Below, piece after piece: positions 18,043 through 62,698 of a stretch of 64,000 nucleotides of DNA. The stretch's first letter is position 1; every line of letters starts with the position of its first letter. Origin of the DNA: a virus. The DNA is taken from IMG/VR virus record IMGVR_UViG_3300030060_004050, positions 32,001 to 96,000 of that record. The stretch is one strand, 5' to 3'. The notes under the pieces were generated by a model. It worked only from the letters and a program-made list of their open reading frames with translations. It was not told the origin of the DNA and ran no database searches. Made by a program: the position numbers and the translations under genes.

Positions 18043-18058
18043 TGTGAGGCATTAGTTA

Positions 18059-18066
18059 CATACATA
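18059..18066 (+). promoter_or_regulatory. Putative T4-type late promoter variant (CATACATA) upstream of gp13
   Basis: Intergenic; same CATACATATA recurs before gp19. Confidence 0.5.
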
Positions 18067-18087
18067 TAAAGGAAAAGGAGCGTCAAA

Positions 18088-24797: not shown

Positions 24798-24807
24798 TCA
24801 AAGTAGG

Positions 24808-24815
24808 CATACATA
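24808..24815 (+). promoter_or_regulatory. Putative late promoter variant (CATACATA) upstream of gp19
   Basis: Intergenic; identical to motif before gp13. Confidence 0.5.
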
Positions 24816-24832
24816 TAGAGAAGGAAACTTAA

Positions 24833-42082: not shown

Positions 42083-42489
42083 TGTGTTTGTTTGATAATG
42101 ACACAAAAGAAGAAACAAAAGAATGCACTAAGTGTAAGCGAGAATTACCAAAGTCAAACTTCGGGCCTTCTAGTGGTGGAGTTTACTTACGAGGTGAGTG
42201 CAGAGAGTGCGCCCGTAAGGCAACAAAACTTGTTAAAGAACTAAGAGAGAAACAGAGCAAACCAAAAGAAACATATACTTGTCCCATATGTGAAAAAAAT
42301 ATAACAGAGATACAAGGTAATTCATGGTGCTTGGATCATGATCACAAAACAAAAAAATTCAGAGGTTGGTTATGTCATAAGTGTAATCGAGCCTTGGGAA
42401 ACTTTGACGATGATATTGAATTGCTTAAAAAAGCGATAGAGTACATAAAGAAAGATCGCAATGACGACACAAATCAAACCTTATTATGA
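42082..42489 (+). CDS. Endonuclease VII-family (putative free-standing homing) endonuclease
   Basis: CTKC..CREC; CPIC; LDHDH..FRGWLCHKCNRALG. Confidence 0.85.
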   Translation: MCLFDNDTKEETKECTKCKRELPKSNFGPSSGGVYLRGECRECARKATKLVKELREKQSKPKETYTCPICEKNITEIQGNSWCLDHDHKTKKFRGWLCHKCNRALGNFDDDIELLKKAIEYIKKDRNDDTNQTLL

Positions 42490-44056: not shown

Positions 44057-44955
44057 ATTGTTTAATTACAGGTGGAGCAGGACATATAGGATCTCACCTC
44101 GCCCTTAGATTGCACGAAGAGGGACATGAGGTTGACATCATCGATAACCTATCGGTAGGAAACCGTGATGCAATAAAAGATCTAGAAAATCTGGGATGGA
44201 AGGGCGAGTTTACTAAAGCAAGTATCAATGATCCTCAAATGGTGGCATATGCACTTCAATTAAAGAAGTATGATGTGTGTTTTCATTTAGCAGGTTACAC
44301 TGTCCCACAGGACTCTGTTGAAAAACCAGTGGTTTATTATGAAAACAACTTGTCCCCGTTTACTCAGTTTCTATCCTCTCTCATATTCCATGGTGTTAAT
44401 AGGGTAGTCTTGTGTAGAACTGAAAATACCTACACTCCTTGTGAAACATCTGCCAGAACAGTAGAGCAAATTATTTACGATGTATGTAAGGTAACTCCTA
44501 ACATAAACTACTCATCTTTTAGATTACCAGAGGTAGTTGGAAATAATATTGATGGTAAGATTGGAGACTATGGGTTTGGTAAAAAAAATAAACTCATTTG
44601 CAATTGTATGTCCGCATCTGCAAACATTATTCCGCAGGTGGTGGTGGACAATGGAGCCGATTCACACAAATTAATTCATGTGGATGATGTGGTTGAAGAA
44701 CTAATTAAGTCCTTAAGCGACACGAAGAATCAAATTCATCATGTAAACCCAGCCATAATTACAACTGCCAGAAGTATAGTTGAATCGTGTATAAAGGTAA
44801 CTGCCGGTAAATACCCTGTCATCGAGAAAAAGTATGATCAGGATCAAGTTGATACCGTCGATATTAAAGTAAATAAAAGTGCCTCTATAACTTGCCTAGA
44901 TACAATTACAAAATCAATTTGGAATTGGATCAAAAGAGTTAAAAAGATTCCTTGA
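44053..44955 (+). CDS. GalE-like NAD-dependent epimerase homologue, catalytic residues apparently lost
   Basis: TGGAGHIGSHL, HLAG, YYENN, IHVDD; no YxxxK. Confidence 0.7.
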   Translation: MNCLITGGAGHIGSHLALRLHEEGHEVDIIDNLSVGNRDAIKDLENLGWKGEFTKASINDPQMVAYALQLKKYDVCFHLAGYTVPQDSVEKPVVYYENNLSPFTQFLSSLIFHGVNRVVLCRTENTYTPCETSARTVEQIIYDVCKVTPNINYSSFRLPEVVGNNIDGKIGDYGFGKKNKLICNCMSASANIIPQVVVDNGADSHKLIHVDDVVEELIKSLSDTKNQIHHVNPAIITTARSIVESCIKVTAGKYPVIEKKYDQDQVDTVDIKVNKSASITCLDTITKSIWNWIKRVKKIP

Positions 44956-46525: not shown

Positions 46526-47227
46526 ATGGAAACTACAATGACATCAACTAAAATTTCAAACGAAACTCTAGAAGTATTAAAGAACTTCTCATCAATCAAC
46601 TCAAATATTCTCGTTAAGGAGGGAAATGTACTGACTACCATTTCCCCCGTCAAGAATGTAATGGCAGAAGCAACTGTCCCCGAAACTTTCGATCAGGAGT
46701 TTGGTATCTGGGATCTTAACAAGTTCCTTGGAACCATTTCCCTTTTCGATAGTCCTGAGTTTATGTTTGAGGATAAGTTTGTAACGATCAGTTCGAGCAA
46801 AAACAATTCGTCTGTTCGATACTACTACTCAGAACCTTCTCTTCTTACCACGGTAAACAAGAAGATTAATATGCCCGAACCAGTTGTCACTTGTTCGATT
46901 ACCCAAAAGGTATTCAATGACATCCTTAAGGCATCTTCCGTTCTTCAGGTTAGCGACATTGCAATTCAGTCTGACTCCGACGAACTGCAAATTGTCGCAC
47001 TGGATAAGAAGGATAAGAGCAGCAACAGTTACTCCATCAAGATTGCAGACATGCCTATTGGTGGACCTACTTTTGCTTTCTACTTCAAGGCAGAAAACCT
47101 GAAGATGCTTCCGGGTGATTATGATGTAAACATCACGGAGAAGGTTGTGAGTGAGTTCACCAACACAAACCGAAGTCTTAAGTATTGGGTAGCACTGGAA
47201 TCTGACTCATACTACCAGGCACCATGA
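46526..47227 (+). CDS. gp45: Sliding clamp gp45
   Basis: TLEVLKNFSSINSNI; TISPVKNVMAEA; FGIWDLNKFL; ENLKMLPGDY; YWVALE. Confidence 0.95.
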   Translation: METTMTSTKISNETLEVLKNFSSINSNILVKEGNVLTTISPVKNVMAEATVPETFDQEFGIWDLNKFLGTISLFDSPEFMFEDKFVTISSSKNNSSVRYYYSEPSLLTTVNKKINMPEPVVTCSITQKVFNDILKASSVLQVSDIAIQSDSDELQIVALDKKDKSSNSYSIKIADMPIGGPTFAFYFKAENLKMLPGDYDVNITEKVVSEFTNTNRSLKYWVALESDSYYQAP

Positions 47228-48129
47228 ACACTTTAGTAACAGGTGGAAGTGGACTTGTTGGATCTTGTGTCGGAGGAACGCATAAACCGCGTTCTTCCGA
47301 TCTTGATCTATTAAATTATGATCAGGTATACCAATACATTAAAGATCACAACATAAAAAGAATAGTTCACTGTGCTGCTAGGGTGGGTGGTGTAAAAGAA
47401 AATACAGAAAAACCAGCAGACTTCTTCTATGACAATATGCAGATGACACTGAACGTAATTCATGCTGCTAAAGAATGTAATGTTGAAAAAGTTATTTGTA
47501 TGCTATCTACATGCATCTTTCCATATCAGGTAGAATATCCATTGACAACCGAACAGATTCATCTTGGAGAACCCCACCCGTCAAATTATGGGTATGGTTT
47601 TGCTAAGAGAATGACTGAAGTAAACGCTAGAGCATATAGAGAACAGTATGGAATGAATATAGTTACTGTTGTTCCGTGTAATGTATATGGCATAGGTGAC
47701 AATTTTAACTTGGATAGTTCTCATGTTATTCCGGGATTGATTCATAAGTATTATCTTGCATCAAGAGATGATACTGATGTTACAATCTGGGGAGGTGGAC
47801 AAGCAAAAAGAGAATTTATATACAATAAGGATCTGGGTAAAATTGTAGACTGGGTTGTTGACAACTATGATGATGAAGAGCCTCTTATAATTTCACCCGA
47901 TGAAGAAATTAGCATCGCTAGTCTTTCTAATGAAATTGCATCAATTTTTAGTTTCTTCAATACAATCTTTTTTGATAATTCGATGCCTGACGGAATGCTA
48001 AGAAAACCATCAGATAATAGCAAACTCAAAGAGTTGCTCCCTGATTTTTCTTATACATCTTTAGGAGAAGGACTTCAAGAAACCATAGATTGGTTTGTGG
48101 AAAATTACGATAAAGGTATTAGATTATGA
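47224..48129 (+). CDS. GDP-L-fucose/colitose synthase (Fcl/ColC-family epimerase-reductase)
   Basis: TGGSGLVG; HCAARVGGV; LSTCIFP; GEPHPSNYGYGFAKR; PCNVYGIGDNF..SHVIPGLI; REFIY; DGMLRK. Confidence 0.9.
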   Translation: MNTLVTGGSGLVGSCVGGTHKPRSSDLDLLNYDQVYQYIKDHNIKRIVHCAARVGGVKENTEKPADFFYDNMQMTLNVIHAAKECNVEKVICMLSTCIFPYQVEYPLTTEQIHLGEPHPSNYGYGFAKRMTEVNARAYREQYGMNIVTVVPCNVYGIGDNFNLDSSHVIPGLIHKYYLASRDDTDVTIWGGGQAKREFIYNKDLGKIVDWVVDNYDDEEPLIISPDEEISIASLSNEIASIFSFFNTIFFDNSMPDGMLRKPSDNSKLKELLPDFSYTSLGEGLQETIDWFVENYDKGIRL

Positions 48130-49295
48130 AAACCATGAAAAAATGGAAGTTGATGGATGATGCCATCACACAAGAACAAAGAGAAAAACTTGCAGCCTTC
48201 TGCTTAAAGAGCGACAGGTTTTCTCAGGGACAGGAAGTACGAAAATTTGAAGAACAGTGGAGCAAGTGGCAGGGTTGTAAATACTCTGTATTTTGCAATT
48301 CCGGTTCCTCTGCAAACTTCTTGATGGTGCAAGCAGCAAAAGAACTTTGGGCCCCGCACCCCGGAGCAACTTGGGTTTCTCAGGCATGTACATGGGCAAC
48401 TACAGTTTCTCCTATAATGATGTCGGGTGACAATTTGCAACTTTGTGATGTGAGTCTTCCCTCTCTTGGACCTGATAAAAAGAATCTTGAAAAGATTTTC
48501 CATGATGGTTGTTTTAATGGAGACTGTCCACGTTATCTTTTCCTCGCACACCTTCTAGGATTCTCTGCGATTGATAATGAAATTCTTCAAATGTGTGACT
48601 ACTATGGAGTAACTCTATTGGAAGATTGTTGCGAATCTCATGGTGCAACATACAGAGGGAGAAAGATTGGAAACTTTGGTGATATGTCCTCCTTCTCATT
48701 CTATTACGGTCATCATATGACAACGATTGAAGGCGGAATGGTTTGCACTAACCATAAAGATCTGTATGAAAAACTATTGCTCCTCCGCTCACATGGACTC
48801 ATGAGAGAACTACCAGAGGACTCAAAAGAAGAATATAAAGATCATGTGGTGGATGATAACTTTACTTTTATGTTGCCTGGTTTCAACATGAGATCCACCG
48901 ACTTCAATGCTATTCTAGGTCAAATGCAACTAGAAGATCTCGACAAACACAATGACATTCGAACAGAAAACTTCGATGTGTTTGCCAATAAATTAGACAG
49001 TGAAAAGTATTACACCGATTTTAGAACAGAAGGAAACTGTAGTTTTTGTTTCCCTGTTATTTGTAAAGATGGTGGATCGAAAAAACTAAGAGAAGTTCTA
49101 GAGAAAGAGGGTGTCGAAACTCGACCTGTTATTGCGGGTAACCTACACAGACATCCGTTCATGAAGAAAGTAAATCAGTTTAGATATGATGATAACGCAG
49201 AGATCGTTCATAAGAATGGTTTCTACATTGGTAACAACCACTCCGTGCAGACAGGAGATGTAGAGTGGTTGGTAGATTTATTGAATAGGAGTTGA
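48126..49295 (+). CDS. PLP/PMP-dependent DegT-family enzyme, ColD/E1-type 3-dehydratase
   Basis: NSGSSAN; EDCCESHGA; SFSFYYGHHMTTIEGG with His at the Schiff-base Lys position; LRSHG. Confidence 0.8.
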   Translation: MKTMKKWKLMDDAITQEQREKLAAFCLKSDRFSQGQEVRKFEEQWSKWQGCKYSVFCNSGSSANFLMVQAAKELWAPHPGATWVSQACTWATTVSPIMMSGDNLQLCDVSLPSLGPDKKNLEKIFHDGCFNGDCPRYLFLAHLLGFSAIDNEILQMCDYYGVTLLEDCCESHGATYRGRKIGNFGDMSSFSFYYGHHMTTIEGGMVCTNHKDLYEKLLLLRSHGLMRELPEDSKEEYKDHVVDDNFTFMLPGFNMRSTDFNAILGQMQLEDLDKHNDIRTENFDVFANKLDSEKYYTDFRTEGNCSFCFPVICKDGGSKKLREVLEKEGVETRPVIAGNLHRHPFMKKVNQFRYDDNAEIVHKNGFYIGNNHSVQTGDVEWLVDLLNRS

Positions 49296-49296
49296 T

Positions 49297-50295
49297 GTGA
49301 AAAAAGCATTAATAACCGGAATTAGTGGACAAGATGGATCTTATCTTGCAGAATTTTTGCTGGGTAAAGATTATGAAGTTCATGGAATTATTAGAAGAAA
49401 CTCAGTTGCAGAAAATCAAACGGCAAGACTCAAGAACGTATTTGACGATGATCACCTTCATCTCCATTATGGAGACGTTGAAGATTTATCTTGTCTTATT
49501 GAATTGTTGCAGAAGGTACAACCAGAGGAAGTGTATAACCTAGCAGCACAGTCTCATGTTAGAATTAGTTTTGATGTTCCTTTGTATACTGCTGCTGCAA
49601 CTGGACTCGGTAGTCTTAAGGTAATCGAGGCATGTAGATTGGTTTGTCCAGATGCTAGAATTTATCAAGCGTCTTCGTCTGAGATGTTCGGAAATAGTAT
49701 CGATGATGACGGGTTTCAAAGAGAGTCAACACCTCTATCTCCGGTGAGTCCATATGGATGTTCAAAAGTTTTTGCCTATAACATTGCGAGAAACTATAGA
49801 AACTCATATGACATGTTTATCTCAAACGGTATTCTGTTTAATCATGAATCGCCTAGAAGAGGATCTAACTTTGTAACAAGCAAAGTAGTGAAGGGTGCAT
49901 GTGCAATTAAGATGGGTGAACAAGAAAATCTAAAACTAGGAAACTTAGATGCAACTAGAGATTGGGGACATGCAAAAGATTATGTCGAGGCAATGTGGAT
50001 GATACTTCAACACAGTGTACCCGACGATTTTGTTTGTGCGACCGGAGTATCGCATAGTGTTCGTGATCTATGCGAATATACCTTTAAAGTTCTTGACATG
50101 GACTATAAACAGTATATAATTACAGATGAAAAGTACCTTCGTCCAGAAGAACTAGAGGATCTAAAAGGAGACTCGTCTAAACTTAGATCACAAGTAGGAT
50201 GGAAACCGAGGTACTCTTTTGAATTGATGATCAATGAAATGATTGAGCATGAACTTTGGAATGAATATCAAGTGAGTTTGGAGGACATTATATGA
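49297..50295 (+). CDS. gmd: GDP-mannose 4,6-dehydratase
   Basis: ALITGISGQDGSYLAEFLL; YNLAAQSHVRISF; YQASSSEMFG; SPYGCSK; FNHESPRRG..FVTSK; GNLDATRDWGHAKDYV. Confidence 0.96.
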   Translation: MKKALITGISGQDGSYLAEFLLGKDYEVHGIIRRNSVAENQTARLKNVFDDDHLHLHYGDVEDLSCLIELLQKVQPEEVYNLAAQSHVRISFDVPLYTAAATGLGSLKVIEACRLVCPDARIYQASSSEMFGNSIDDDGFQRESTPLSPVSPYGCSKVFAYNIARNYRNSYDMFISNGILFNHESPRRGSNFVTSKVVKGACAIKMGEQENLKLGNLDATRDWGHAKDYVEAMWMILQHSVPDDFVCATGVSHSVRDLCEYTFKVLDMDYKQYIITDEKYLRPEELEDLKGDSSKLRSQVGWKPRYSFELMINEMIEHELWNEYQVSLEDII

Positions 50296-51245
50296 CGGTT
50301 GCTGAAGCAACAAAAGATTTTTTGTGGGTGGAGAAGTATCGCCCTAACACTATTGCAGACTGTATTCTCCCGAAAGATATCAAAGATACCTTTCAGGCTA
50401 TTGTTGATTCTGGTGAACTTCAAAACCTTCTCCTATCAGGTGGAGCAGGATGTGGTAAAACCACGATTGCAAAAGCACTTTGTAATGAGATGGGTTCAGA
50501 CTGGATTATCATTAACTGTTCGGAAGATGGTAACATTGATACCCTTCGAACGAAGATTAGAAACTTTGCAAGCAGCGTTTCAATCGGTGGTGGTAACAAG
50601 GTAGTAATCCTAGATGAGTTTGATTATGCTAATGCACAGAGTATGCAACCTGCTCTTCGTGGGTTCATCGAGGAATTTGCTAATAATTGCCGTTTTATTC
50701 TGACTTGTAACTTCAAGAACAGGATTATTGAACCTCTTCATTCTAGATGTACCAATATAGAGTTTCGTATTCCCAATGCAGAGAAACCTGCAATGGCAGC
50801 AGGATTCTTGGATAGGATTGAATACATTCTCAACCAAGAGGGAATTGAATATGAGCAGCGAGTTCTAGCAGAACTTGTGATGCGACACTTTCCCGACTTC
50901 CGCAGAGTAATCAACGAACTTCAAAGATACTCTGTTGCAGGGACAATTGACATTGGTATACTTTCTAGAGTTGGTAGTGTAAAAATCAACGAACTCATGG
51001 ATGCGATGAAGATGAAGAAGTTTACTGACGTTCGTAAGTGGGTTGTTGAAAACCTTGATAACGATCAGACTAGAATCTTCAGAAAGATCTATGATGGTTT
51101 GTATGAAACTATGGAACCACAAAGTATCCCGAGAGCAATTCTTGTTCTTGCCGATTATCAGTATAAGTCTGCATTCGTAGCAGATCAAGAGATTAACCTT
51201 ACAGCATGTTTAACAGAACTAATGATGGAGTGTGAATTCAAATGA
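50292..51245 (+). CDS. gp44: Clamp loader large subunit gp44
   Basis: LWVEKYRP; GGAGCGKTT; VVILDEFD; ALRGFIEEF..NCRFILTCN; IIEPLHSRC; FPDFRR. Confidence 0.96.
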   Translation: MTVAEATKDFLWVEKYRPNTIADCILPKDIKDTFQAIVDSGELQNLLLSGGAGCGKTTIAKALCNEMGSDWIIINCSEDGNIDTLRTKIRNFASSVSIGGGNKVVILDEFDYANAQSMQPALRGFIEEFANNCRFILTCNFKNRIIEPLHSRCTNIEFRIPNAEKPAMAAGFLDRIEYILNQEGIEYEQRVLAELVMRHFPDFRRVINELQRYSVAGTIDIGILSRVGSVKINELMDAMKMKKFTDVRKWVVENLDNDQTRIFRKIYDGLYETMEPQSIPRAILVLADYQYKSAFVADQEINLTACLTELMMECEFK

Positions 51246-51541
51246 AGGGATTTAAACCACATGGAGATAAAGTAGTCATCGAACTCTGCGAAAAGAAGAA
51301 GGAGTATGAAAACATTATCTACGAAGACAAGAAGAATATTCCTTGGATAAAGGGTAGAGTTTTATCAATTGGTGCAGGGACAAAGGATGAAAGCGGTAAA
51401 GTTTACCCTGCTGAATTTGAAGTGGATGACTATGTTGTTTTTGATAAAACCAAAGGCGTGGATACATACGAGGGTTTAGCAATCGTAGACATACGATCTG
51501 TCGTCATGGTTGTAGATAAAGATACAGAGATATCAGGATGA
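51242..51541 (+). CDS. GroES/Cpn10-like co-chaperonin
   Basis: FKPHGDKVVIE; KGRVLSIGAG; EFEVDDYVVF. Confidence 0.7.
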   Translation: MKGFKPHGDKVVIELCEKKKEYENIIYEDKKNIPWIKGRVLSIGAGTKDESGKVYPAEFEVDDYVVFDKTKGVDTYEGLAIVDIRSVVMVVDKDTEISG

Positions 51542-52388: not shown

Positions 52389-53075
52389 ATGAAAATTGAT
52401 ATTCGTGATGTGACTTGTCGCTGGATTAACCTAGACAGCGACACAGAAAATGCTAAAGAAATGGAAACCCAATTTAAAGAACTTGGGTTCGACAACCACA
52501 AAAGATTTTCTGCCAGAGTAGTAGATGCACCAGAGGGTACTCCGTACAATCTCAGGCATTATGTCGGTTGTGCCCAGTCCCATATTGATGTGTTAACAGA
52601 AGAGTTTGATAGCGGACACCTCCTAGTATTGGAGGATGATGTTGTTACAACCCCATGGTATAAAGATACAATAGAAGTTCCCGATGACACGGATGCTGTG
52701 TATCTTGGTGTTTCGCATGGAAATCAAAATTACCTCGCACAAGATATATCAGAGCCGGGTGGAGAATGGTTAGCAAGAATACAGGGAGTATTTGCAACTC
52801 ACGCCATTCTTTACTTGACAAACAAATACAAGCAAGCAACAATCGACATCGCAAAAGAATACGCATACAATCGTAGCACTCCGTTTGACGTTGGTTGTGC
52901 AGAAATACAAAAATCGTTTAACGTTGTAACACCACACCTTCCTTTCTTTTATCAATCCGATGATCGAAGAAATGAAAACAACTGGGGTGATATAACGTCT
53001 CAACCATTAAGAATGATGGCTTATGGATCAGGACCACTAGGACCGGGATACGGTAGAGGACCACAAGGAGGTTAA
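52389..53075 (+). CDS. GT25-like glycosyltransferase (copy 1)
   Basis: WINLD; FSA; GCAQSH; LVLEDD; YLG; THAILY. Confidence 0.65.
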   Translation: MKIDIRDVTCRWINLDSDTENAKEMETQFKELGFDNHKRFSARVVDAPEGTPYNLRHYVGCAQSHIDVLTEEFDSGHLLVLEDDVVTTPWYKDTIEVPDDTDAVYLGVSHGNQNYLAQDISEPGGEWLARIQGVFATHAILYLTNKYKQATIDIAKEYAYNRSTPFDVGCAEIQKSFNVVTPHLPFFYQSDDRRNENNWGDITSQPLRMMAYGSGPLGPGYGRGPQGG

Positions 53076-53076
53076 T

Positions 53077-53958
53077 ATGTTATGTTTTCCAAGATTAGGT
53101 GATTACGGTTACTTAGGTAACGCAATGTTCCAGTACTCTGCTCTACTCGGTATTGCAGATAAACATGGATACACCCCCGTTTATGATTATGAAAAAACAG
53201 GGACAATGGTTACCCTTCATGATCATTTTAAGATTACAAAGGCAGAGCAACTTGAACAATGGAAGCAAGTTCACGGAATGAAGAGAGTTTGGAAAGAACC
53301 TCACTTTAATTTTTCCGAATATGCATTTATGGACAAACCTCCGCTATCAAGCGAAAGAAAAAAGAAACTTGGTATTGTTGACGAGTCTCCTCCTATCGTT
53401 CGAGAAGACACAGGACTAAATGGATACTTCCAGTCAGAGAAGTATTTCAATCACATTGAAGATACAATTCGATCCGAGTTTACCTTTAGTGATGAGGTGC
53501 GGGAACAATGTGAAGAAACAATCAAACCCATTAGAGAGAAGGACAAGATTGTAGTGTCCTTACATGTTCGATTAGGAGACTACAAGATGCTCGAACATGT
53601 CTATGTCCCTCTGGTAAAAACTGATTATTATCAAAAGGCAATCGCTTACCTATCAAATGAATTTGGTGAGGACAACCTACACTTTATTGTTTTCTCAGAT
53701 GAACCTCAAATTTGCAAGCAGATTTTTCAAGGAGAGAATATTGCTTACGCTGAAGGTGGATCTCAGACTCAAGATATGTGCCTGATGTCAATGTGTGATC
53801 ACAACATCATCGCTAACAGTTCATTCAGTTGGTGGGGTGCATGGTTAAACAACAACAAGGACAAGAAGGTAATTGCTCCACACGGTTGGTTCCAACCAAA
53901 TGAAAAAGATCCAAAGAACACTAAGGATCTATACTGTGAAGATTGGATTATTCTGTGA
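53077..53958 (+). CDS. GT11 alpha-1,2-fucosyl/colitosyltransferase
   Basis: GYLGNAMFQY; GYFQSEKYF; SLHVRLGDY; VFSD; DMCLMSMCDHNIIANSSFSWWGAWL. Confidence 0.9.
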   Translation: MLCFPRLGDYGYLGNAMFQYSALLGIADKHGYTPVYDYEKTGTMVTLHDHFKITKAEQLEQWKQVHGMKRVWKEPHFNFSEYAFMDKPPLSSERKKKLGIVDESPPIVREDTGLNGYFQSEKYFNHIEDTIRSEFTFSDEVREQCEETIKPIREKDKIVVSLHVRLGDYKMLEHVYVPLVKTDYYQKAIAYLSNEFGEDNLHFIVFSDEPQICKQIFQGENIAYAEGGSQTQDMCLMSMCDHNIIANSSFSWWGAWLNNNKDKKVIAPHGWFQPNEKDPKNTKDLYCEDWIIL

Positions 53959-55565
53959 AAAACATACTCTCATTTTATGGTGGACATGATGCATCTGTTA
54001 CGTTTGTTGATAAGCAAGACAGGGTAAGAGTTATCGAAGTAGAGCGATATGTTAAGCAACGCTACGCTGCTTTCTCTTCATATCAAAACAAAAGATCTTT
54101 TGGTATTAGTGATGCGAAGAGATTAGATTTTCTAAATTACTTGTATGACTCTGTTTTCGATCCGGAAAAGATCGACACTATTTTATACATGGGTTTGTCT
54201 GAAGATGATGCAAATCTAATTAAAAAGTTTTTTCCTAATGCAGAGTTTAAACACATGAATCATCATCGTTCACATGCCTATTGTGGACATTACCAGTCGG
54301 GTTTTGAAAAGAGTATTATATTTTCAGTAGATGGTGGTGGTGTGGATCATGGACAGACGGTAACCACAAAAGTATTTTTAGGCAACGGAAACGACATCGA
54401 GGAACTTGAAGATTGTAAAATTGATTTCGGAACCGCCTACATGTCAGTTGGTAAATATATTTCTGAAATCAAAAAAAAGCAAGACGACTCCCTTGCCTGG
54501 GCAGGAAAAATCATGGGACTTTGTGCCTATGGTGAAGTAAGAGAAGAATGGGTAGAACCCATGACAAGGTTCTATAAAACAATATCAGAAAAAACACATG
54601 AAAATATTGCATCTTCTGATCAAAGTTTCGGATCTGAAATCATTCAAGAACTGTTTCCAGACACAGTTCTAACTCAAGACTGTCTAAAGGGTAAAGACAG
54701 TTATGATCTTGCTGCAACCAGTCAACATGTGTTTGAAGAACTTTTGTTCGAGTGGATGGAACCATATGTTAACGAATACAGAAGAGATGTTGTTTTAGTT
54801 GGTGGGTGTGCATTAAACGTTCTATACAATCAGAGATTCTCTGAGTATATGTTTGAAAAGAACATGAATAAACTGTACGTTCCACCAAACCCCAATGACT
54901 GTGGATTGTCTCTCGGATTTTTCCTAGAGGAGTGTCCTGAGTTAAGAGGTAAAGATTTCGTGTACGAAGGAATTGAACTCCTAGACAGAGACGATCTACA
55001 AAAGCATGTTTCTGAAAGAAACGCGAAAGAAGTCAATACATCAGATATTGTTGACATTATCAAACGAGGAGAAATTGTTGGTTTGGTATATGGTGACTCT
55101 GAGATCGGACCTAGAGCATTAGGAAACAGAAGTATTATCTGTGATCCCTCTTTCGAAAACATGAAGGACATCTTGAACAAGAAAGTAAAGTTTAGAGAGT
55201 GGTACAGACCTTTTGCCCCTGTTTCAATGCTACACCACTCCAACACATACTTCCACAAGGTGTTCGAATCAAACTACATGAGTTTTGCACCAAAGGTTAA
55301 AGAAGAGTATCAGGAAAAACTTCGTGCCATTACTCATGTTGATGAAACCTCTAGACTACAAACTGTTTGTAAAGTCGGAGGACACCGAGGGTTCATGGAC
55401 ATTCTAGAGGAGTTGAATCGTAGAGAAGAGATCCCTGTCATTCTAAACACATCTTTTAATATCAGAGGGTATCCGATCCTCACAACGATAGAGGACGCAC
55501 TTCATGTTCTGGATAATACTGAATTGGATCATGTTGTGGTAGAGGGTTACTTGTTTTCAAAATGA
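53955..55565 (+). CDS. NodU/CmcH-family carbamoyltransferase (probable GTG start 53955)
   Basis: HHRSHA; DGGG; GKIMGLCAYG; GGCALN; GPRALGNRSI; KFREWYRPFAP; HVDETSRLQTV; LNTSFN. Confidence 0.92.
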   Translation: MKNILSFYGGHDASVTFVDKQDRVRVIEVERYVKQRYAAFSSYQNKRSFGISDAKRLDFLNYLYDSVFDPEKIDTILYMGLSEDDANLIKKFFPNAEFKHMNHHRSHAYCGHYQSGFEKSIIFSVDGGGVDHGQTVTTKVFLGNGNDIEELEDCKIDFGTAYMSVGKYISEIKKKQDDSLAWAGKIMGLCAYGEVREEWVEPMTRFYKTISEKTHENIASSDQSFGSEIIQELFPDTVLTQDCLKGKDSYDLAATSQHVFEELLFEWMEPYVNEYRRDVVLVGGCALNVLYNQRFSEYMFEKNMNKLYVPPNPNDCGLSLGFFLEECPELRGKDFVYEGIELLDRDDLQKHVSERNAKEVNTSDIVDIIKRGEIVGLVYGDSEIGPRALGNRSIICDPSFENMKDILNKKVKFREWYRPFAPVSMLHHSNTYFHKVFESNYMSFAPKVKEEYQEKLRAITHVDETSRLQTVCKVGGHRGFMDILEELNRREEIPVILNTSFNIRGYPILTTIEDALHVLDNTELDHVVVEGYLFSK

Positions 55566-56389
55566 AAGTTGCTGAAGAAAAACTAAAATTATTCGTAGTG
55601 GGTGTCGATCCTTGCTGGACAGATCCAAAACAAATATACCAAACAACAAACTCAAAGTGGACTCTTGATGAATCTGGTGTCAAGATTTTTGTTGATCATA
55701 TGTTGGTAGAGGGCTTGTCCTGTCCAGACGAAAACAAATATGCTTGGATATACGAACCAGCATCTGTCATACCAGACTTCGTTGATCACATAAAAAGTAG
55801 TGTGCATCTGTATGCTAAAACATATAATAAACTGTTTACCCACAACAGACAGATTGCAAACCTACACGATAATTTTGTTCTTGTAGATCCCGGTTTTCCT
55901 AGTTGGATTGATTCACCAAAGATACACAAGAAGTCCAAAGTAGCGTCTATGATTACCTCCACGAAAAACTTTACACCGGGACACCGACATAGAATACATT
56001 GGGCGAATAAACTTCATGGACAGTTGGATCTATATGGAAGAGGACATAACGAAATTGAGTCAAAGGAAGACGGACTAAATGACTACATGTTCTCGGTTAG
56101 TCTGGAAAATGATGATACCGTATACACCGAAAAACTCTTAGATTGTTTTCTAACAGGCACTGTACCCATTTATTGGGGAAGCGATGATGTTAAAAATATT
56201 TTTAATAACGACGGAATCATATGGATTGACAGCAACTTTAGCGTAGATTCCTTGACAGAGGAACTATATAATTCTAAGAAAGAAGCAATACAAGAGAACT
56301 TTGAAATTGCAAAACAGGTAAACAAAGGCATCCCGGAAATGGTAGACTTTTTCGTTGATGATTATATTTTAGGAGATATAAATGAGTGA
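55562..56389 (+). CDS. GT10-like (alpha-1,3-fucosyltransferase-type) glycosyltransferase
   Basis: DLYGRG; YMFSVSLEN..YTEKLLDCFLTGTVPIYWG. Confidence 0.7.
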   Translation: MKVAEEKLKLFVVGVDPCWTDPKQIYQTTNSKWTLDESGVKIFVDHMLVEGLSCPDENKYAWIYEPASVIPDFVDHIKSSVHLYAKTYNKLFTHNRQIANLHDNFVLVDPGFPSWIDSPKIHKKSKVASMITSTKNFTPGHRHRIHWANKLHGQLDLYGRGHNEIESKEDGLNDYMFSVSLENDDTVYTEKLLDCFLTGTVPIYWGSDDVKNIFNNDGIIWIDSNFSVDSLTEELYNSKKEAIQENFEIAKQVNKGIPEMVDFFVDDYILGDINE

Positions 56390-57641
56390 TATTCCAGAAC
56401 TAGGATTGTGCATGATTGTCAAAAACGAAGAGCATGTTATTGAAAGATGCTTGGAGTCTATTCACAAATATATTGGATACTGGGTAATTTGTGACACAGG
56501 ATCTACAGACAAAACAAAAGAAGTCATCGAGTCATTTTTCGAAAAGAAGGGAATCCCCGGTGAGGTAGTTGACATTCCTTGGGAGGGATTCGGTGCATCT
56601 CGAACGAAGGCACTTGAATGTGCTAAGGGAAAAATGAAGTATGCATGGATGATTGACGCAGACGATAGCGTCGAGGGAACTCCAAAACTACCCAACCTTA
56701 GCAATCCTGTTGATGGTTACTCCTTGAAAATTAAAAGAGGTGACTTTACATGGTGGAGAAATCATATTTTCAGACTAGAAAGTAACTGGAGATATGAGGG
56801 TGTTCTTCACGAATATGCAACATGTGATGCAGGCGCTGCTATGGTTTGTCTACCAATGAATGGAAATTACCATATCGAAGCAAGAACAGAGGGTGGTAGA
56901 AACGTCGATGTGACATCTCAAGAAAAGTATCTCAAAGATGCTGAAGTGATTATGGATGCACTTACAAACGAAAAGTCTCCACACTATGAACCAGAAAACA
57001 GTCGGTATATCTTTTACCTTGCTCAAAGTTACTTCGATGCTGGTGAATATGAACTCGCAAAGGAGTGGTATATTCAAAGAGCAAAGGCAGGAGGATGGGA
57101 AGAAGAAGTATTCTATGCGATGTATCGTGTAGGTATTTGTAACGTTCTTCTTGAACGTCCATGGCAAGAAATTCAAGATGCTTTTATGCAAGCATGGTCA
57201 TATCGTCCTTGTAGAATTGAACCTCTGTGGCAGATTTCAAGACTCTATAGGCAGAACGGAAACCCAAGACTAGCATATCTGTTTGCAAACCAAGGACTGG
57301 GTGTTCCCTTCCCCGAACAAGATATTCTTTTCCTTGCTCACGACATTTGGGACTGGCAAATTCTAGACGAAGTTGCAGCAACCGCATACTATGTTCATGA
57401 ATTTGAAAAGGGACTTGCTGCATCTAATATGCTGCTGAAGAATCCCAACTTCCCCAAAGAGCATCACGAAAGAACTCTAACAAATATCAAACTATATCAA
57501 GAAGCACTAGCAAACAAGCAAAAAGCAATACAAGAGAGAGAAGAGCGTCTGAAAGGACACTCTGACTATGGTGCTACTTCAAAGAAAAGACCTGAAAGAA
57601 AGAAGTCATTTAAGAAGAGAAAGAAACAAAAGGCAAGGTAA
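56382..57641 (+). CDS. GT2 glycosyltransferase with C-terminal TPR repeats
   Basis: LCMIVKNEEHVIERCLES; DTGSTDKT; IDADD; GVLHE; TPR-like RYIFYLAQSYFDAGEYELAKEWY. Confidence 0.85.
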   Translation: MSDIPELGLCMIVKNEEHVIERCLESIHKYIGYWVICDTGSTDKTKEVIESFFEKKGIPGEVVDIPWEGFGASRTKALECAKGKMKYAWMIDADDSVEGTPKLPNLSNPVDGYSLKIKRGDFTWWRNHIFRLESNWRYEGVLHEYATCDAGAAMVCLPMNGNYHIEARTEGGRNVDVTSQEKYLKDAEVIMDALTNEKSPHYEPENSRYIFYLAQSYFDAGEYELAKEWYIQRAKAGGWEEEVFYAMYRVGICNVLLERPWQEIQDAFMQAWSYRPCRIEPLWQISRLYRQNGNPRLAYLFANQGLGVPFPEQDILFLAHDIWDWQILDEVAATAYYVHEFEKGLAASNMLLKNPNFPKEHHERTLTNIKLYQEALANKQKAIQEREERLKGHSDYGATSKKRPERKKSFKKRKKQKAR

Positions 57642-57648
57642 TAATTTT

Positions 57649-57656
57649 CCTAAATA
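57649..57656 (+). promoter_or_regulatory. Putative late promoter variant CCTAAATA preceding the fibre island
   Basis: Intergenic, followed by AGGAG SD and ATG 57672. Confidence 0.55.
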
Positions 57657-57671
57657 CAATAGGAGAAACAT

Positions 57672-58136
57672 ATGGCAGCAGGCGAATATGACATTTTAGC
57701 AGAGCAAGGTACGACCTTCAAGTTATCTTTAACCTATAAAGACTCATCGGATGCGGTGATTGATCTGGAAGGACAAACGGGTAATATGCAAGTGCGTAGA
57801 TCCGTTAGTGACAATCAGGCACTACTGTTCCTTTCTGGTCCTACGGGATCACATGTTGCACCGGGAATCCGAGGATCGTTGACAGGTGGTGGATCCACTG
57901 GAGAATTTACCACCGGAACTACTCAAGGACAAACCGGAACTGGCGGTGTTATGCTTAACACCAGTTCTACTGGTGGAACAGGGACAACTGGTGGAATCTA
58001 TATTCAAATTGATTCATCTACAATGGCAAACGTACCTGCTGGTAACCACATTTATGATTTAGAATTGGTTTCGGGTTCATCTGTAACTAGAATTCTACAG
58101 GGTAGATTCGAGGTAACTGCGGAAGTCACTAGATGA
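57672..58136 (+). CDS. Virion structural adaptor-like protein
   Basis: [36 protein letters not shown], a type often preceding fibre genes; Gly/Thr insert. Confidence 0.6.
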
Positions 58137-60343
58137 GTTTCAAGATTGTAGTAAACGATAACAACGAACCAAACAAAGTCGTAGTAAACAACGACATTGT
58201 TACTGTTATCGCTCAATCCATAGAAGAAGATTCCACTAGTGTCTTCATTAATTCTCCGTCTGGGGTAGGACCTGGTGGAGATAAAGGTGATCCGGGAGCA
58301 ACAGGAACCACAGGTTCTACAGGTCCAACAGGCGCTCAGGGAACTACTGGAACCACAGGGACTACAGGAACCACTGGTGCAACTGGTGCAACTGGTTCAC
58401 AGGGTGTTCAGGGTATTCAAGGAACTACTGGAACCACTGGAACCACAGGGGCAACTGGCGCTACTGGTTCACAAGGTGTTCAGGGTATTCAAGGAACCAC
58501 TGGGACTACCGGAACTACAGGCACGACAGGTGCAACAGGCGCGACAGGTGCAGATGGAAGTCAAGGTGTACAAGGAACAACTGGCACTACGGGTTCCACA
58601 GGAACCATAGGAAGGGTAGGAATTTGCGGTGGTTCTTCGTTCGACAATAATGAATCTCTTCTGTTCTTCTCTACAACCGATGGTTTAACATTAACATCAT
58701 CTCAAAGTGGGACGGTAACTAAAGTCTTGTTTGATGGTGATGGACTTCTTGGTGCTGGTATGCAGGAAGCATTGTATACCTACGGTTTGACTAGTGGTGA
58801 ATTGAATGCAGTTTCTCCGTCAAGCAATGGTGAATTGCTATTCAACGAAACCAACAACCAATTAGGAATTTTTAAATTTGACAACAGCGGCAGGGATTTC
58901 AGAACACAACTTTCTTCTGCTATAAACAATAATGCCACTGGTAGAGTTGTCTTGAGATTCGATGATGGTATTCAAGCCAGATCATTTGAATTTGACGGAA
59001 CTGATTCCGATGCTGTGTATAACGGAACGTTTTTCAGAATTCCAGTTACTCAAATTAACGGCGGAACAGCAGGTAGCGGTAAAATAGTTGGGGTTGAAAT
59101 TGAACTAGACAACCAGACTATGGGACCTGGTACAGCATTCCGTCTTCCCGGTGGAGGAGAAACTTTCACCAGCGTTGTCACAATGCTTAATGGATTTACT
59201 GGTGGTATCACGCTCAATCACGGAGCAGGAATTACCACTGCTGGTGCATCTGCCACTGGTATAACAATAGGGATTGATCCCTCCTCCACAATAAAGGTTG
59301 CAGGAATTTCATGCGATGGTGGTGCTACGTTTGGTAATAATGTTAGATTCACCTCCGGCAATCACCTCGATATGGGAGAATCTACAATCCGAGGAGGAGG
59401 TAGTGCTGGTAATGCGTTGATGGGACTTGACCTCAATGAAACCCGACACTCCTTACAATTTGGTGAAATTGATACCGAACGCAACTCTACTATTCTTTTT
59501 ATAAATGATCTTAATAAAGAGTATACTTTTTCCGCAGATAGTGGTTGCACGGTAGACATCAATGGAAAACTTGAAGTGAGTGGACTGGTTGAGGCCACTG
59601 CTGGTATCGCTTCCGGTAAGGGAATAACATTTGCAAATGATTCGGATATAATTTTTAATGGTGCATCATCTTCTTCGATCATTCAAAACGGCAACACCGT
59701 AGTGTTGTTTGATGATGCTAATGGACTTGTTAGATTTCCTGTTTTTGCAGTTGATATCGAGCAAAGACTCTCGCATGAGGGAGATAGTGACACATACTTA
59801 GACTTCACTACTAACAATTTAAAGATTCTTACAGGCGGAAATACCGCATTCAATGCTAACGCCACAGGCACAAATATTGGTGGAGTATCATTCGGAGTCA
59901 CCGCCGGCGGAGTGACATTTGGTGGTCCAATAACATTCCCCGATGGAACAACACAATCTACCGCCGCAGATAAACAAGAAACTGTTGCACACTTTACTTT
60001 AACTTCATCCAGCGGACTTACCTCCGGTTCTAGAATTCATAACTTACACTTTGTTCCTTTCAATGCAACAGCAAAACAGATAGGCATAAAAACTTGCGTC
60101 ACTGGTGGAATCACCGCATCAATTCTTGCTGCTAACTTTGCATCTCCATTTGGTGCAACCCAAGCATCAGGAACAAGAACAATCGCAACACTAAACGCAG
60201 CAACCGCATCCTTTGGTGCAACAGGAACAACGATGTCCTCGGCAGCAATTACCGGAGGTTCCTTCTTGTACCTTAAGATCGACGGAATATCTTTCCCAGG
60301 CATTACTGGTGTTCAAGCATTCTTGACGTATGAGAGGTCATAA
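58133..60343 (+). CDS. Collagen-like fibre protein
   Basis: 38 Gly-X-Y triplets; fibre-like C-terminal region ([12 protein letters not shown]). Confidence 0.8.
58277..58618 (+). repeat. Collagen-like (Gly-X-Y)38 tract with recurring [24 protein letters not shown] units
   Basis: Read directly from translation and DNA. Confidence 0.9.
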
Positions 60344-61515
60344 TGGCACTAACTGATGTATTCATTTCACCCGCTGGTGCTGGAGATAACTCTGGTAGTT
60401 CTGTTGCAAACGCTCTCCCTGCGATTAGCAGTGGTGATTGGTCAACGAACATCGAAGGACTCGACCGAGCAAACAAGAGATTTGTGTTTCTTACTGGAAC
60501 TTATGATGTTACAACCAAGTTGACATTCAGTGGTTCTGCTCCATCAGCAACCCAACCAAATCAATGGATCGGTGCAGACTCAAGTGGAAATCCTCTTCGA
60601 CCAAAGTTTGATGAATCAGGTCTTCGACTGGTCACGACAGACTATCCTAAATTTGTGTGTAGTACGAATGTCGCAATGGTTGATACAGAAGAAAACACAT
60701 ACTACAAGTGCTTATCGTTTGAAAACACAAGCACATCGTACTCCCTAACTTCTATTATTGAAACCACAACTACCGATGTTGACCAACAAATGTGGTTTGG
60801 TTGTGAATTTAAAACAGAGTATTCCCGTGCCAGTAGTACGCTTGTTGTCATGACTGTTACCACCGCCGCTTTTTCAGATTGTGTATTTGAAGTAGGGGGT
60901 GGTGGAGGTTTTTCTCAGTTCGACTGCGTGGTAGAAGCGACTAGTAACAATACATTTGACAATTGTAGGATTATTGGTCCATTCTCCCCAGCGGACCCCC
61001 AACTCGTTGGTTCCGCTGGAGATCAAGTTGGATTGAGAATAACTGCACTTACAACGAAGGTGAGAAACTGTGTGATTACGAGAGTGAATGGAACTGCGGT
61101 TGAACTTGAATTCTCAAACACTAAGACAGAAATTGATGTTGCTCATTGTACCATTTGTGATGCGAATGATGGAATCGTCACCAGCAGTGCCGCTTCCGCA
61201 CTCCCCGGAAAAGGTTCGTTAGAGGGAAACATTGTATTTGGTTGCAGTTCTAATGGGATAGAGACGAACGCGGATGACTCCCGACAATCTGGCGCACAGA
61301 TATTAGCAATGGGTTCTAATGGTAGTAATTTTGATTCCAACATGGACTCATACGAAGACATGATTGATGTAATTGCAATTACGACTGGTGACTTTTTTGA
61401 TTACAACAACCAAGACTTCAGAATCAAGAGAGATTCTCCTTTGTATAAATTTTACGGAACTAGAAACTTTGGTGCGATTCAAAACGAGGACTTTGAAATA
61501 GGATCGGTAGGATAA
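60343..61515 (+). CDS. Putative right-handed beta-helix (pectin-lyase-like) virion protein
   Basis: Repeating F(S/D)xCxF/I, NCVI, HCTI, GNIV stacks; coupled to the fibre gene. Confidence 0.55.
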   Translation: MALTDVFISPAGAGDNSGSSVANALPAISSGDWSTNIEGLDRANKRFVFLTGTYDVTTKLTFSGSAPSATQPNQWIGADSSGNPLRPKFDESGLRLVTTDYPKFVCSTNVAMVDTEENTYYKCLSFENTSTSYSLTSIIETTTTDVDQQMWFGCEFKTEYSRASSTLVVMTVTTAAFSDCVFEVGGGGGFSQFDCVVEATSNNTFDNCRIIGPFSPADPQLVGSAGDQVGLRITALTTKVRNCVITRVNGTAVELEFSNTKTEIDVAHCTICDANDGIVTSSAASALPGKGSLEGNIVFGCSSNGIETNADDSRQSGAQILAMGSNGSNFDSNMDSYEDMIDVIAITTGDFFDYNNQDFRIKRDSPLYKFYGTRNFGAIQNEDFEIGSVG

Positions 61516-61519
61516 AAAA

Positions 61520-62017
61520 ATGAAATATGAAGTAAACATACCAGCGGGAGTTTCGGGAGACTACAAAATAGTTGAAGGACTCGACACCATCTTACAACAA
61601 AACATCAATGGTGAGTGGTTAACTATAATGGCAGATAGTGAACTGGAGGCGCACCAAGCAAAAGAATTCTTAGATGCTGCCACTGGAGATGTTTTACTTG
61701 CTGGACTTGGAATCGGAATGGTTCTTCAACCACTAATCGATAACGACAATGTTACCAGTATCACCGTAGTAGAAAAATTTCAAGAAGTTATTGATTTGGT
61801 GTGGACACATACACCATCGTCGAGTAAGATTACTCTAGTAAATGATGACATATACACATGGACTCCTGACAAAAATTACGATGTTGCTTGGTTTGATTCT
61901 TTCATAAATCCCATAGACGGATTAGACAACTTGGGAGAATATAAGACTCAAATGCAAAATAAATATGAGAACATCGTTGGTTCTGGTTTCTTCTGGCCAT
62001 CTCATCAAGGTTGGTAA
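61520..62017 (+). CDS. Class I SAM-dependent methyltransferase (spermidine-synthase-like)
   Basis: GDVLLAGLGIGMV; ITVVEKFQEVIDLV; DDIYTW; YDVAWFD. Confidence 0.8.
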   Translation: MKYEVNIPAGVSGDYKIVEGLDTILQQNINGEWLTIMADSELEAHQAKEFLDAATGDVLLAGLGIGMVLQPLIDNDNVTSITVVEKFQEVIDLVWTHTPSSSKITLVNDDIYTWTPDKNYDVAWFDSFINPIDGLDNLGEYKTQMQNKYENIVGSGFFWPSHQGW

Positions 62018-62038
62018 ACAAAAGGAAAACTTTACATT

Positions 62039-62698
62039 ATGAAAATTGATATTCGTGAAATGAGAACCAAGTGGATCAATCTCGACAAAGATACCACTAA
62101 AGCCGAACAAATGATAACTCTACTAGACAGTCATGGGTTTACTTCCCATGACCGTTTTAATGCAATGTGTGAAGACGAAGAGTTCGGAATTACAAGAGAT
62201 AACTGTCAATGGTTCGGAACTCATATGTGTGGACTGTCTCATAGAAAACTTTTACAAGACACAATTATAGCAGATGGAAAACCTATCTTTGTTTTAGAAG
62301 ACGACGTTGAAGTAGAGATGGATAAAATTAAATATGAGATTGAAGTTCCCGATGATGCCGATGCTGTCTATCTAGGAACTTCTCAGGGCGATTGTAACTA
62401 CTCTGCCATAAGTGTAAACGAAGATATAGCAAGGGTAGAGAGAATATTTGCCACACATGCAATCATTCATTTCAACCCAGAATACTCCAAAGCAGTAGCA
62501 AAAATAACTGAGGATGCAGTCAAAGGTGATGGACCTTTTGATGTTGGTATAGCGTATGGTGTACAAAAAGACTTCAACGTATACGCAGTAAAAACTCCAT
62601 ACTTTTATCAAGCAGATTCAAAGAATACCGTGAACAAATACGAGTACATAACTCGAATCCCACTACTTTTAAATGATGAGGAATCTAACTTACTATGA
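62039..62698 (+). CDS. GT25-like glycosyltransferase (copy 2, paralogue of 52389)
   Basis: MKIDIR; WINLD; CGLSH; VLEDD; EVPDDADAVYLG; FATHAII. Confidence 0.65.
   Translation: MKIDIREMRTKWINLDKDTTKAEQMITLLDSHGFTSHDRFNAMCEDEEFGITRDNCQWFGTHMCGLSHRKLLQDTIIADGKPIFVLEDDVEVEMDKIKYEIEVPDDADAVYLGTSQGDCNYSAISVNEDIARVERIFATHAIIHFNPEYSKAVAKITEDAVKGDGPFDVGIAYGVQKDFNVYAVKTPYFYQADSKNTVNKYEYITRIPLLLNDEESNLL

Follow-up and report, generated by a model that had tools for sequence, protein, structure and literature searches.

A candidate tail-fibre glycosylation system built around a GT-A plus TPR glycosyltransferase in a marine T4-like myovirus

Results

The DNA analysed here, referred to as the window, comprises 64,000 nucleotides of IMG/VR record IMGVR_UViG_3300030060_004050 (positions 32,001 to 96,000) and carries at positions 52389-62698 a gene island that an earlier note, made from the sequence alone, had read as a candidate virion-glycosylation system in which glycosyltransferase (GT) and tailoring genes surround genes for a collagen-like tail fibre. 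The source is a 118.5-kb contig of a marine T4-like myovirus with a CheckV completeness of 66%, whose scaffold protein shares about 40% identity with its counterparts in Pelagibacter phage Mosig and in cyanomyophages. The island consists of eleven co-directional, tightly packed open reading frames (ORFs) on the plus strand, for all of which the boundaries given in the earlier note proved exact, and it belongs to a single co-directional and densely packed gene array that extends over 46.5-64 kb. This array begins with gp45 and continues through genes for an Fcl/ColC-like reductase, a ColD-type dehydratase, Gmd, gp44, a Cpn10 homologue, gp62 and RegA. Its middle part encodes GT25-like protein a, GT11, an O-carbamoyltransferase, GT10 and a GT with tetratricopeptide-like repeats (GT2-TPR) and ends in a 30-nucleotide gap holding CCTAAATA, after which come genes for a 154-residue protein, a 736-residue collagen-like fibre, a 390-residue beta-helix protein, a 165-residue methyltransferase-like protein, GT25-like protein b, dcd, DUF1599 and lysozyme. 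The gene identities proposed earlier pass curated Pfam cut-offs for GT11, GT10, GT2, the carbamoyltransferase and collagen, and have weaker evidence behind them for both GT25-like proteins, the beta-helix protein and the methyltransferase. The gene island as observed is confirmed, and its interpretation is partly supported.

The candidate priming enzyme of the island is GT2-TPR (56382..57641, plus strand), a 419-residue protein of the SgtA/GmaR/SunS class. Its N-terminal domain matches Pfam GT2 at 2.2e-14, its nearest solved relatives by sequence in the PDB are Listeria GmaR (5.7e-12) followed by SunS/ThuS, and D92-A93-D94, the DxD motif, is invariant among 31 homologues. An AlphaFold2 model from these 31 homologues, with a predicted local distance difference test score (pLDDT) of 91.5, displays a GT-A alpha/beta domain at residues 7-166 and ten paired helices at residues 179-397 with pLDDT >90. 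A Foldseek search with GT2-TPR returned full-length matches to SunS/ThuS at 1e-16, and next consensus TPR proteins and the TPR domain of OGT; in Pfam the C-terminal repeats gave a sub-threshold ANAPC3 match only. The sole NCBIfam match is SunS (TIGR04195) at 36.7 bits against a cut-off of 350, which places GT2-TPR outside the SunS equivalog family while the architecture is shared. GmaR is a flagellin O-GlcNAc transferase, and SunS/ThuS are peptide S-glycosyltransferases. Because these enzymes are the nearest relatives by sequence and/or fold, and because the GT-A plus TPR fold is recovered in the model, the statement of the earlier note that such an architecture marks protein or peptide glycosylation holds, and both sequence and model assign GT2-TPR to the GT-A plus TPR class that glycosylates proteins and peptides. 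Its gene stands directly upstream of those for the 154-residue protein and the collagen-like fibre, an arrangement that is kept in relatives, and we consider it likely that GT2-TPR modifies one of these adjacent late proteins.

The 154-residue protein (57672..58136, plus strand) has nothing above threshold in Pfam, and its identity comes from predicted structure and synteny. The AlphaFold2 model (pLDDT 74) forms an immunoglobulin (Ig)-like sandwich for which Foldseek returned chains of about 140 residues from the tail tips of T5 and DT57C (4e-6 to 1.5e-5, TM 0.5-0.59), with further solved matches in the 80alpha and Douge baseplates, and the predicted viral structures of BFVD gave BppU_N and minor tail proteins at up to 1.9e-10. 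In T5 the side fibres are anchored by a collar that p132, an Ig-like protein of 140 residues, forms (PMC10038345). Cultured cyanophages encode short homologues of the 154-residue protein within the baseplate/fibre module, as is the case for ORF108 of S-SCSM2R, and in many phages that have no GT2-TPR a collagen-like fibre gene comes directly after the short form. The designation of this protein as an adaptor was a reasonable one in view of its T5 p132/BppU-N type fold and of the location of its homologues, and this indirect, model-based evidence identifies it as a putative fibre anchor in the virion; we refer to it as the anchor. Searches for close relatives in cultured phages, by megablast with the island and by tblastn with the fibre or the 154-residue protein, found none, with low-complexity masking probably having hidden the collagen region, and the matches that do exist in cultured phages are to a short, insertion-less anchor homologue only.

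Anchors that are paired with GT2-TPR carry an additional insertion of 20-45 residues with a high content of Gly, Thr and Ser and little order in the model, and the anchor is a candidate conserved acceptor. The median number of G-x-T motifs in the anchor is 6 in phages with GT2-TPR versus 2 in those without it, and across the ORFs of the 118.5-kb contig the density of G-x-T is highest in the fibre and second highest in the anchor, the two genes that come right after GT2-TPR. N-glycosylation of the insertion was considered and is not proposed, because the N-x-S/T sequon is frequent there and not conserved. One related contig (L135:2760-3637) holds a tandem pair of anchor-family genes, one of which is extended at its N-terminus by 35 residues with much Ser, Thr and Pro.

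Comparison of about 40 related T4-like contigs separated the constant from the variable parts of the island. The phage homologues of GT2-TPR (44-82% identity) always lie between regA and dcd. Within this slot the genes for GT11, GT10, GT25, the carbamoyltransferase, the sugar pathway, the fibre and the beta-helix protein are gained, lost or reordered, and only GT2-TPR and the anchor gene are constant. The anchor occurs in a long form of 133-155 residues and a short form of 109-116 residues. Wherever the DNA around a long-form anchor gene reaches far enough, GT2-TPR is encoded upstream on that strand, in most cases as the immediate neighbour; two loci that had seemed to be exceptions have the enzyme 13-14.5 kb upstream. 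Among the short-form homologues, which come from other phages, GT2-TPR is absent in 39 of 39. A sister subclade illustrates the locus without the enzyme: in L271 (3605-4521) the slot is empty and dcd directly follows regA, and in L288 (817-1215) and L298 (1217-1606) it holds an anchor homologue of 128-131 residues with neither the Gly/Thr/Ser-rich insertion nor GT2-TPR.

Bacterial homologues of the enzyme provide a second line of evidence on its substrates. We surveyed the neighbourhoods of the 80 best cellular GT2-TPR homologues (24-31% identity, nearly all from Bacillota) and found a collagen-like ORF with G-X-Y repeats within 6 kb of 35 of them, in 23 of the 80 on the same strand and at most 700 nucleotides away. 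The background in five of these genomes is 0 to about 5 collagen loci per ~5 Mb, so that a random 12-kb window would be expected to hold one about 1% of the time, and the linkage of the GT2-TPR family to collagen-like genes in bacteria is strong. The experimentally proven member of this arrangement is C. difficile SgtA, a GT-A plus TPR enzyme encoded immediately upstream of bclA3, which adds the initiating O-GlcNAc to Thr of the BclA3 collagen GPT repeats (PMC7157674). Of 69 viral GT2 loci that are more distant, 10 carry collagen ORFs no further than 4 kb away, some of these ORFs being enormous, and a profile search found no anchor homologue near the distant GT2-TPR homologues. On the viral contigs L034-L037 and L039, distant GT2 homologues of the GmaR/SunS type adjoin giant collagen-like ORFs of up to 2814 residues that consist of nearly nothing but G-X-Y repeats and are rich in Thr, Gln and Val.

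In the window, the collagen-like tail fibre (58133..60343, plus strand; 736 residues) is a further candidate acceptor, supported as a fibre by Pfam Collagen (1e-16) and PHROG tail-fibre families. Its repeat, at residues 49-165, consists of 39 G-X-Y triplets without a break, and Thr fills 50% of the X/Y positions; Thr is the commonest X/Y residue across phage collagen repeats in general. The fibre is followed by a right-handed parallel beta-helix protein (60343..61515, plus strand), tailspike- or depolymerase-like, whose Pfam Beta_helix match (1e-5) scores 25.7 bits and so falls just below the cut-off of 25.9; its ESM Atlas structural neighbours, the beta-helices of pectinesterase, NosD and chondroitinase-B, confirm the identity, and the gene is syntenic with the fibre in relatives. 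A small S-adenosylmethionine (SAM)-methyltransferase-like protein (61520..62017, plus strand; PHROG 15480 at 2e-14, with weak Pfam matches to RrnaAD and Maf_flag10_N) comes next, and in relatives, too, its gene closes the late island ahead of dcd.

The boundary between the GT block and the structural genes is marked by a T4-type late-promoter-like motif, CCTAAATA (57649..57656, plus strand), 16 nucleotides before the anchor gene. The full motif was rejected as a specific late signal on its count in the window, where 3 copies against 1.84 expected is not significant. TAAATA, by comparison, is found 10-40 nucleotides upstream of the start of the anchor orthologue in 31 of 42 distinct related loci, irrespective of the upstream gene, versus 0 of 41 loci with short- or intermediate-form anchors. 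In the window TAAATA is depleted (26 copies, 19 of them on the coding strand, against 47 expected, with at least 26 in all 100 shuffles), which is consistent with selection against stray late promoters. The conservation of TAAATA before the anchor start supports a T4-type late promoter that would drive the structural cassette, which here includes the methyltransferase and GT25-like protein b. A copy of CCTAAATA before GT25-like gene a was also considered as a promoter for the GT block and rejected, as it is encoded by conserved Pro-Lys-Tyr codons of RegA and is lost by synonymous change in distant relatives. The late motif reported in the earlier note stands, then, for the anchor gene; nothing comparable is conserved for the GT block, which on these grounds is probably part of the early/middle replication transcription unit. 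Some structural genes are preceded instead by CATACATATA-like motifs, for example at 18043-18087 and 24798-24832.

The sugar donors are suggested by a three-gene GDP-colitose/fucose cassette (47224-50295) that is inserted between gp45 and gp44, 2-5 kb upstream of the GT block, and this counts in favour of the interpretation in the earlier note, in which the GT10 and GT11 enzymes would draw on GDP-L-fucose or GDP-colitose. All three genes are on the plus strand. The first encodes an Fcl/ColC-like GDP-sugar epimerase-reductase (47224..48129; Pfam Epimerase 2e-45; NCBIfam GDP-L-fucose synthase 228.8 bits, below the 500-bit cut-off). The second encodes a GDP-4-keto-6-deoxymannose 3-dehydratase of the ColD type and DegT family (48126..49295), whose best solved match is E. 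coli ColD/WbdK (2gms) at 1e-55 and which has a His-His motif, aligned with that of ColD, at the position of the aminotransferase Schiff-base Lys. The third encodes the GDP-mannose 4,6-dehydratase Gmd (49297..50295; Pfam GDP_Man_Dehyd 1.8e-117; TIGR01472 409.5 bits against a cut-off of 415). The near-threshold score of Gmd and the Fcl-like score of the reductase make GDP-fucose, GDP-colitose or both possible products. Relatives keep subsets of the cassette: Gmd is missing in L003 and ColD in L004 and L005, and in L007 and L010 the cassette genes are located after dcd.

The GT block itself contains, on the plus strand, GT25-like protein a (52389..53075; PHROG 24091 at 1e-36, PHROG 2835 at 9.5e-10, Pfam GT25 E 0.019), a GT11 of the alpha-1,2-fucosyltransferase family (53077..53958; Pfam PF01531 1.3e-23), an O-carbamoyltransferase of the NodU/CmcH type (53943..55565; Pfam Carbam_trans_N 3e-22 and Carbam_trans_C 8e-56; PHROG 1601 at 1e-112) and a GT10-like fucosyltransferase (55562..56389; Pfam PF00852 3.6e-8, 33.7 bits against a cut-off of 23.9). 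GT25-like protein b (62039..62698, plus strand; PHROG 24091 at 1.4e-32, Pfam GT25 2.9e-4, below cut-off) is a paralogue of a at the end of the late cassette. With 15.2 and 21.2 bits over about 35 aligned residues, the two GT25-like proteins do not reach the Pfam PF01755 cut-off of 24; their Atlas neighbours are named GT25 and carry PF01755 on 30-41% of members, and a cluster of Nucleocytoviricota GT2/GT25 fusions structurally resembles protein a. The GT25 label of the earlier note survives on the PHROG families and on these neighbours, which point to distant GT25 kinship, and 'GT25-like' is used tentatively. No membrane segments were detected in the GTs, none of which has a hydrophobic 19-residue window scoring at least 1.6. 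In the related contig L096 (981-8819) the interval between GT2-TPR and the anchor is occupied by genes for an RCC1-repeat protein, a sulfotransferase, an FkbM methyltransferase, a PfkB kinase and an epimerase, a set that suggests alternative tailoring, including sulfation.

Discussion

The best reading of this locus is that it encodes a phage system for O-glycosylation of tail-fibre proteins, a prediction to which, taken as a full scheme, we assign an even chance. What the analysis establishes is which genes are present, how the priming enzyme is built and folded, the fold of the anchor, the synteny with its conservation, and the late motif; all of the enzymatic steps and the identities of the acceptors are predictions. 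During early or middle infection, Gmd, ColD and the ColC/Fcl-like enzyme would make GDP-L-colitose and/or GDP-L-fucose, and the soluble, cytoplasmic GTs would be expressed as well. The TPR domain of GT2-TPR may then bind proteins of the late tail-fibre module, allowing the enzyme to put the first sugar on Thr or Ser within Gly-x-Thr-rich segments. The conserved acceptor would most likely be the Gly/Thr/Ser-rich insertion of the anchor, and in the phage studied here the collagen stalk of the fibre, a G-x-T-bearing stretch of 39 triplets, would probably serve as a second. The GT25-like, GT11 and GT10 enzymes would extend and cap the glycan, and the carbamoyl- and methyltransferases would decorate it.

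Several observations weigh against this scheme. The phage is uncultured, and the system is predicted from its genes. The earlier note had put forward co-occurrence of this GT set with Thr-rich collagen as a check, and that check failed: the median Thr fraction of collagen is 0.29 beside GT2-TPR versus 0.36 in phages without GT2-TPR, with no enrichment beside the enzyme, and some fibres beside GT2-TPR are rich in Lys and Glu. Thr-rich collagen was likewise discarded as a marker of GT2-TPR phages, being equally common without the enzyme. Nor did the proposed pairing of enzyme and fibre stand up, the constant partner being the anchor. In several relatives (L009, L012, L086 and others) GT2-TPR and the anchor gene are followed by dcd with no fibre nearby, and a 136-kb relative that is 75% complete contains no collagen-like gene anywhere. 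The composition of the anchor insertion also varies, and one GT2-TPR-associated subgroup is much less rich in Gly and Thr. Furthermore, the anchor tree sets the GT2-TPR-associated forms apart from the others at a single branch, so that the co-occurrence in phages fits one acquisition followed by retention and does not amount to independent evidence; independent origins of the pairing were considered and rejected on the same tree, which resolves one clade. The GT block is embedded in the operon of early/middle replication genes (gp45-gp44-gp62-regA), and it is not preceded by a conserved late promoter. Finally, GT10, GT11, GT25 and colitose are typical of lipopolysaccharide (LPS) and O-antigen synthesis and are classical O-antigen components.

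This last point leads to the main rival, that the GTs and tailoring enzymes remodel the host surface by modifying LPS, O-antigen, capsule or a surface protein, for example to block superinfection, and that they are close to fibre genes only because both accumulate in a hypervariable host-recognition region. The hypervariable regions of pelagimyophages and cyanomyophages do hold GT10, GT11, GT25, GT2 and sugar epimerases among their tail-fibre genes, and the standard published reading of these similar clusters is modification of the host surface, whether O-chain or cell wall, or glucosylation of DNA (PMC7029224; PMC12801897). The same papers describe neither the protein-GT nature of GT2-TPR nor its fixed pairing with an Ig-like anchor (PMC7029224; PMC12801897). 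The slot from regA to dcd has the character of a hot spot with variable content, and the embedding of the GT genes in an early/middle operon fits host remodelling just as well as it suits enzymes that are needed before their late substrates. What argues against host remodelling is that the best-conserved GT belongs to a class that glycosylates proteins and peptides, that it is never parted from the anchor gene across a deep clade, and that its bacterial relatives are linked to genes for collagen-like proteins and not to O-antigen clusters. In addition, no credible flippase, polymerase or ligase (a polytopic membrane ORF of the Wzx/Wzy/ligase type) and no initiating transferase was found on the 118.5-kb contig, a weak negative given that part of the genome is missing from the contig and that the host could supply such components. 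On balance we regard host remodelling as an unlikely account of the whole island.

Of similarly low probability is a division of labour in which GT2-TPR, perhaps with the late methyltransferase and GT25-like protein b, puts a simple glycan on virion proteins, and GT25-like protein a, GT11, the carbamoyltransferase and GT10 act with the colitose pathway on host glycans. The late motif does divide the two gene sets, and universal conservation extends to GT2-TPR and the anchor only, with GT11, GT10, GT25 and the carbamoyltransferase coming and going; for SgtA, too, an extending GT could not be identified (PMC7157674). The variable GTs, however, are always found between regA and GT2-TPR in the same orientation and with overlapping stop and start codons, an arrangement that suggests one pathway. 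Glycosylation of modified bases in the phage DNA for evasion of restriction is highly improbable, since, for all that T4-like phages classically glucosylate hydroxymethylcytosine and that the island is followed by a dCTP-deaminase/dUTPase-like gene (dcd) and a DUF1599 'nucleotide modification associated' gene, these two genes are also kept in the empty-slot sister phage L271, the GT families present differ from those known for DNA, and the contig has no hydroxymethylase of the thymidylate-synthase (ThyA) family, the last again a weak negative on an incomplete contig.

Viewed as a system for O-glycosylation of tail-fibre proteins, the island extends known kinds of glycosylation and is not a new category. 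Its closest counterpart is SgtA-BclA3, with Bacillus systems of the BclA type, where a GT-A plus TPR gene stands next to a collagen-like gene, the arrangement shared by the 35 bacterial homologues above, and where Thr occupies the Y position of G-X-Y in the BclA3 collagen (PMC7157674). The phage enzyme, at 24-31% identity to bacterial homologues, is likened to SgtA by architecture and gene arrangement. It differs in belonging to a T4-like phage, in having an Ig-like fibre anchor and not a collagen protein as its conserved neighbour, and in being accompanied by four further GTs, a carbamoyltransferase, a methyltransferase and a nucleotide-sugar pathway. Listeria GmaR and SunS/ThuS likewise combine GT-A with helical repeats and act on flagellin Ser/Thr or on Cys in a Gly-rich peptide loop, whereas nothing in the phage points to flagellin or bacteriocin substrates.

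Virion glycosylation has been approached from two other directions. Mycobacteriophage GTs are reportedly thought to glycosylate the phage's own structural proteins (Freeman et al. 2023). The acceptors there are the C-termini of capsid and tail-tube subunits in siphophages of Actinobacteria, whereas those predicted here belong to the tail-fibre module of a marine myovirus; the present system also differs in its priming enzyme of the GT-A plus TPR class and in its own GDP-deoxysugar pathway. Giant viruses such as Mimivirus and the chloroviruses, which carry glycans on fibrils or capsid, resemble it in their own sugar-nucleotide synthesis, several GTs and methyl-type tailoring, and differ from it in that the phage has a bacterial host, a T4-like virion and a far smaller gene set. 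No giant-virus homologue of the acceptor proteins was found. GT2-TPR homologues of 30-35% identity are present in giant-virus metagenome-assembled genomes (GVMAG contigs L016, L017, L020 and L022).

We found no proposal in the literature that tail-fibre proteins of marine T4-like phages are glycosylated. It is possible, though on present indications doubtful, that a whole clade of these abundant phages makes carbamoylated, methylated (di)deoxyhexose O-glycans on the tail-fibre apparatus by way of an SgtA-like primer. In that case most of the 'LPS genes' long noted where marine myophages encode host recognition would serve to glycosylate the virion and not to remodel the host, and T4-like phages would join mycobacteriophages and giant viruses in having virion glycosylation. 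Glycosylation of the phage's own receptor-binding apparatus by such clusters would change views of host range, of competition between phages, and of how very abundant viruses of the ocean are grazed, stick and decay.

Additional observations

Three genes outside the GT block and the structural cassette deserve mention. The Cpn10/GroES homologue (51242-51541; Pfam 5.4e-10) is located between the clamp-loader genes gp44 and gp62 and is kept in the closest relatives, L003-L006. Upstream of the array, a 531-residue ORF (42461-44056) has a weak C-terminal match to N6/N4 DNA methylases (Pfam 4e-4), and its homologues sit downstream of DUF1599 in the sister subclade. Directly after this ORF lies a gene for a GalE-like epimerase (44053-44955).

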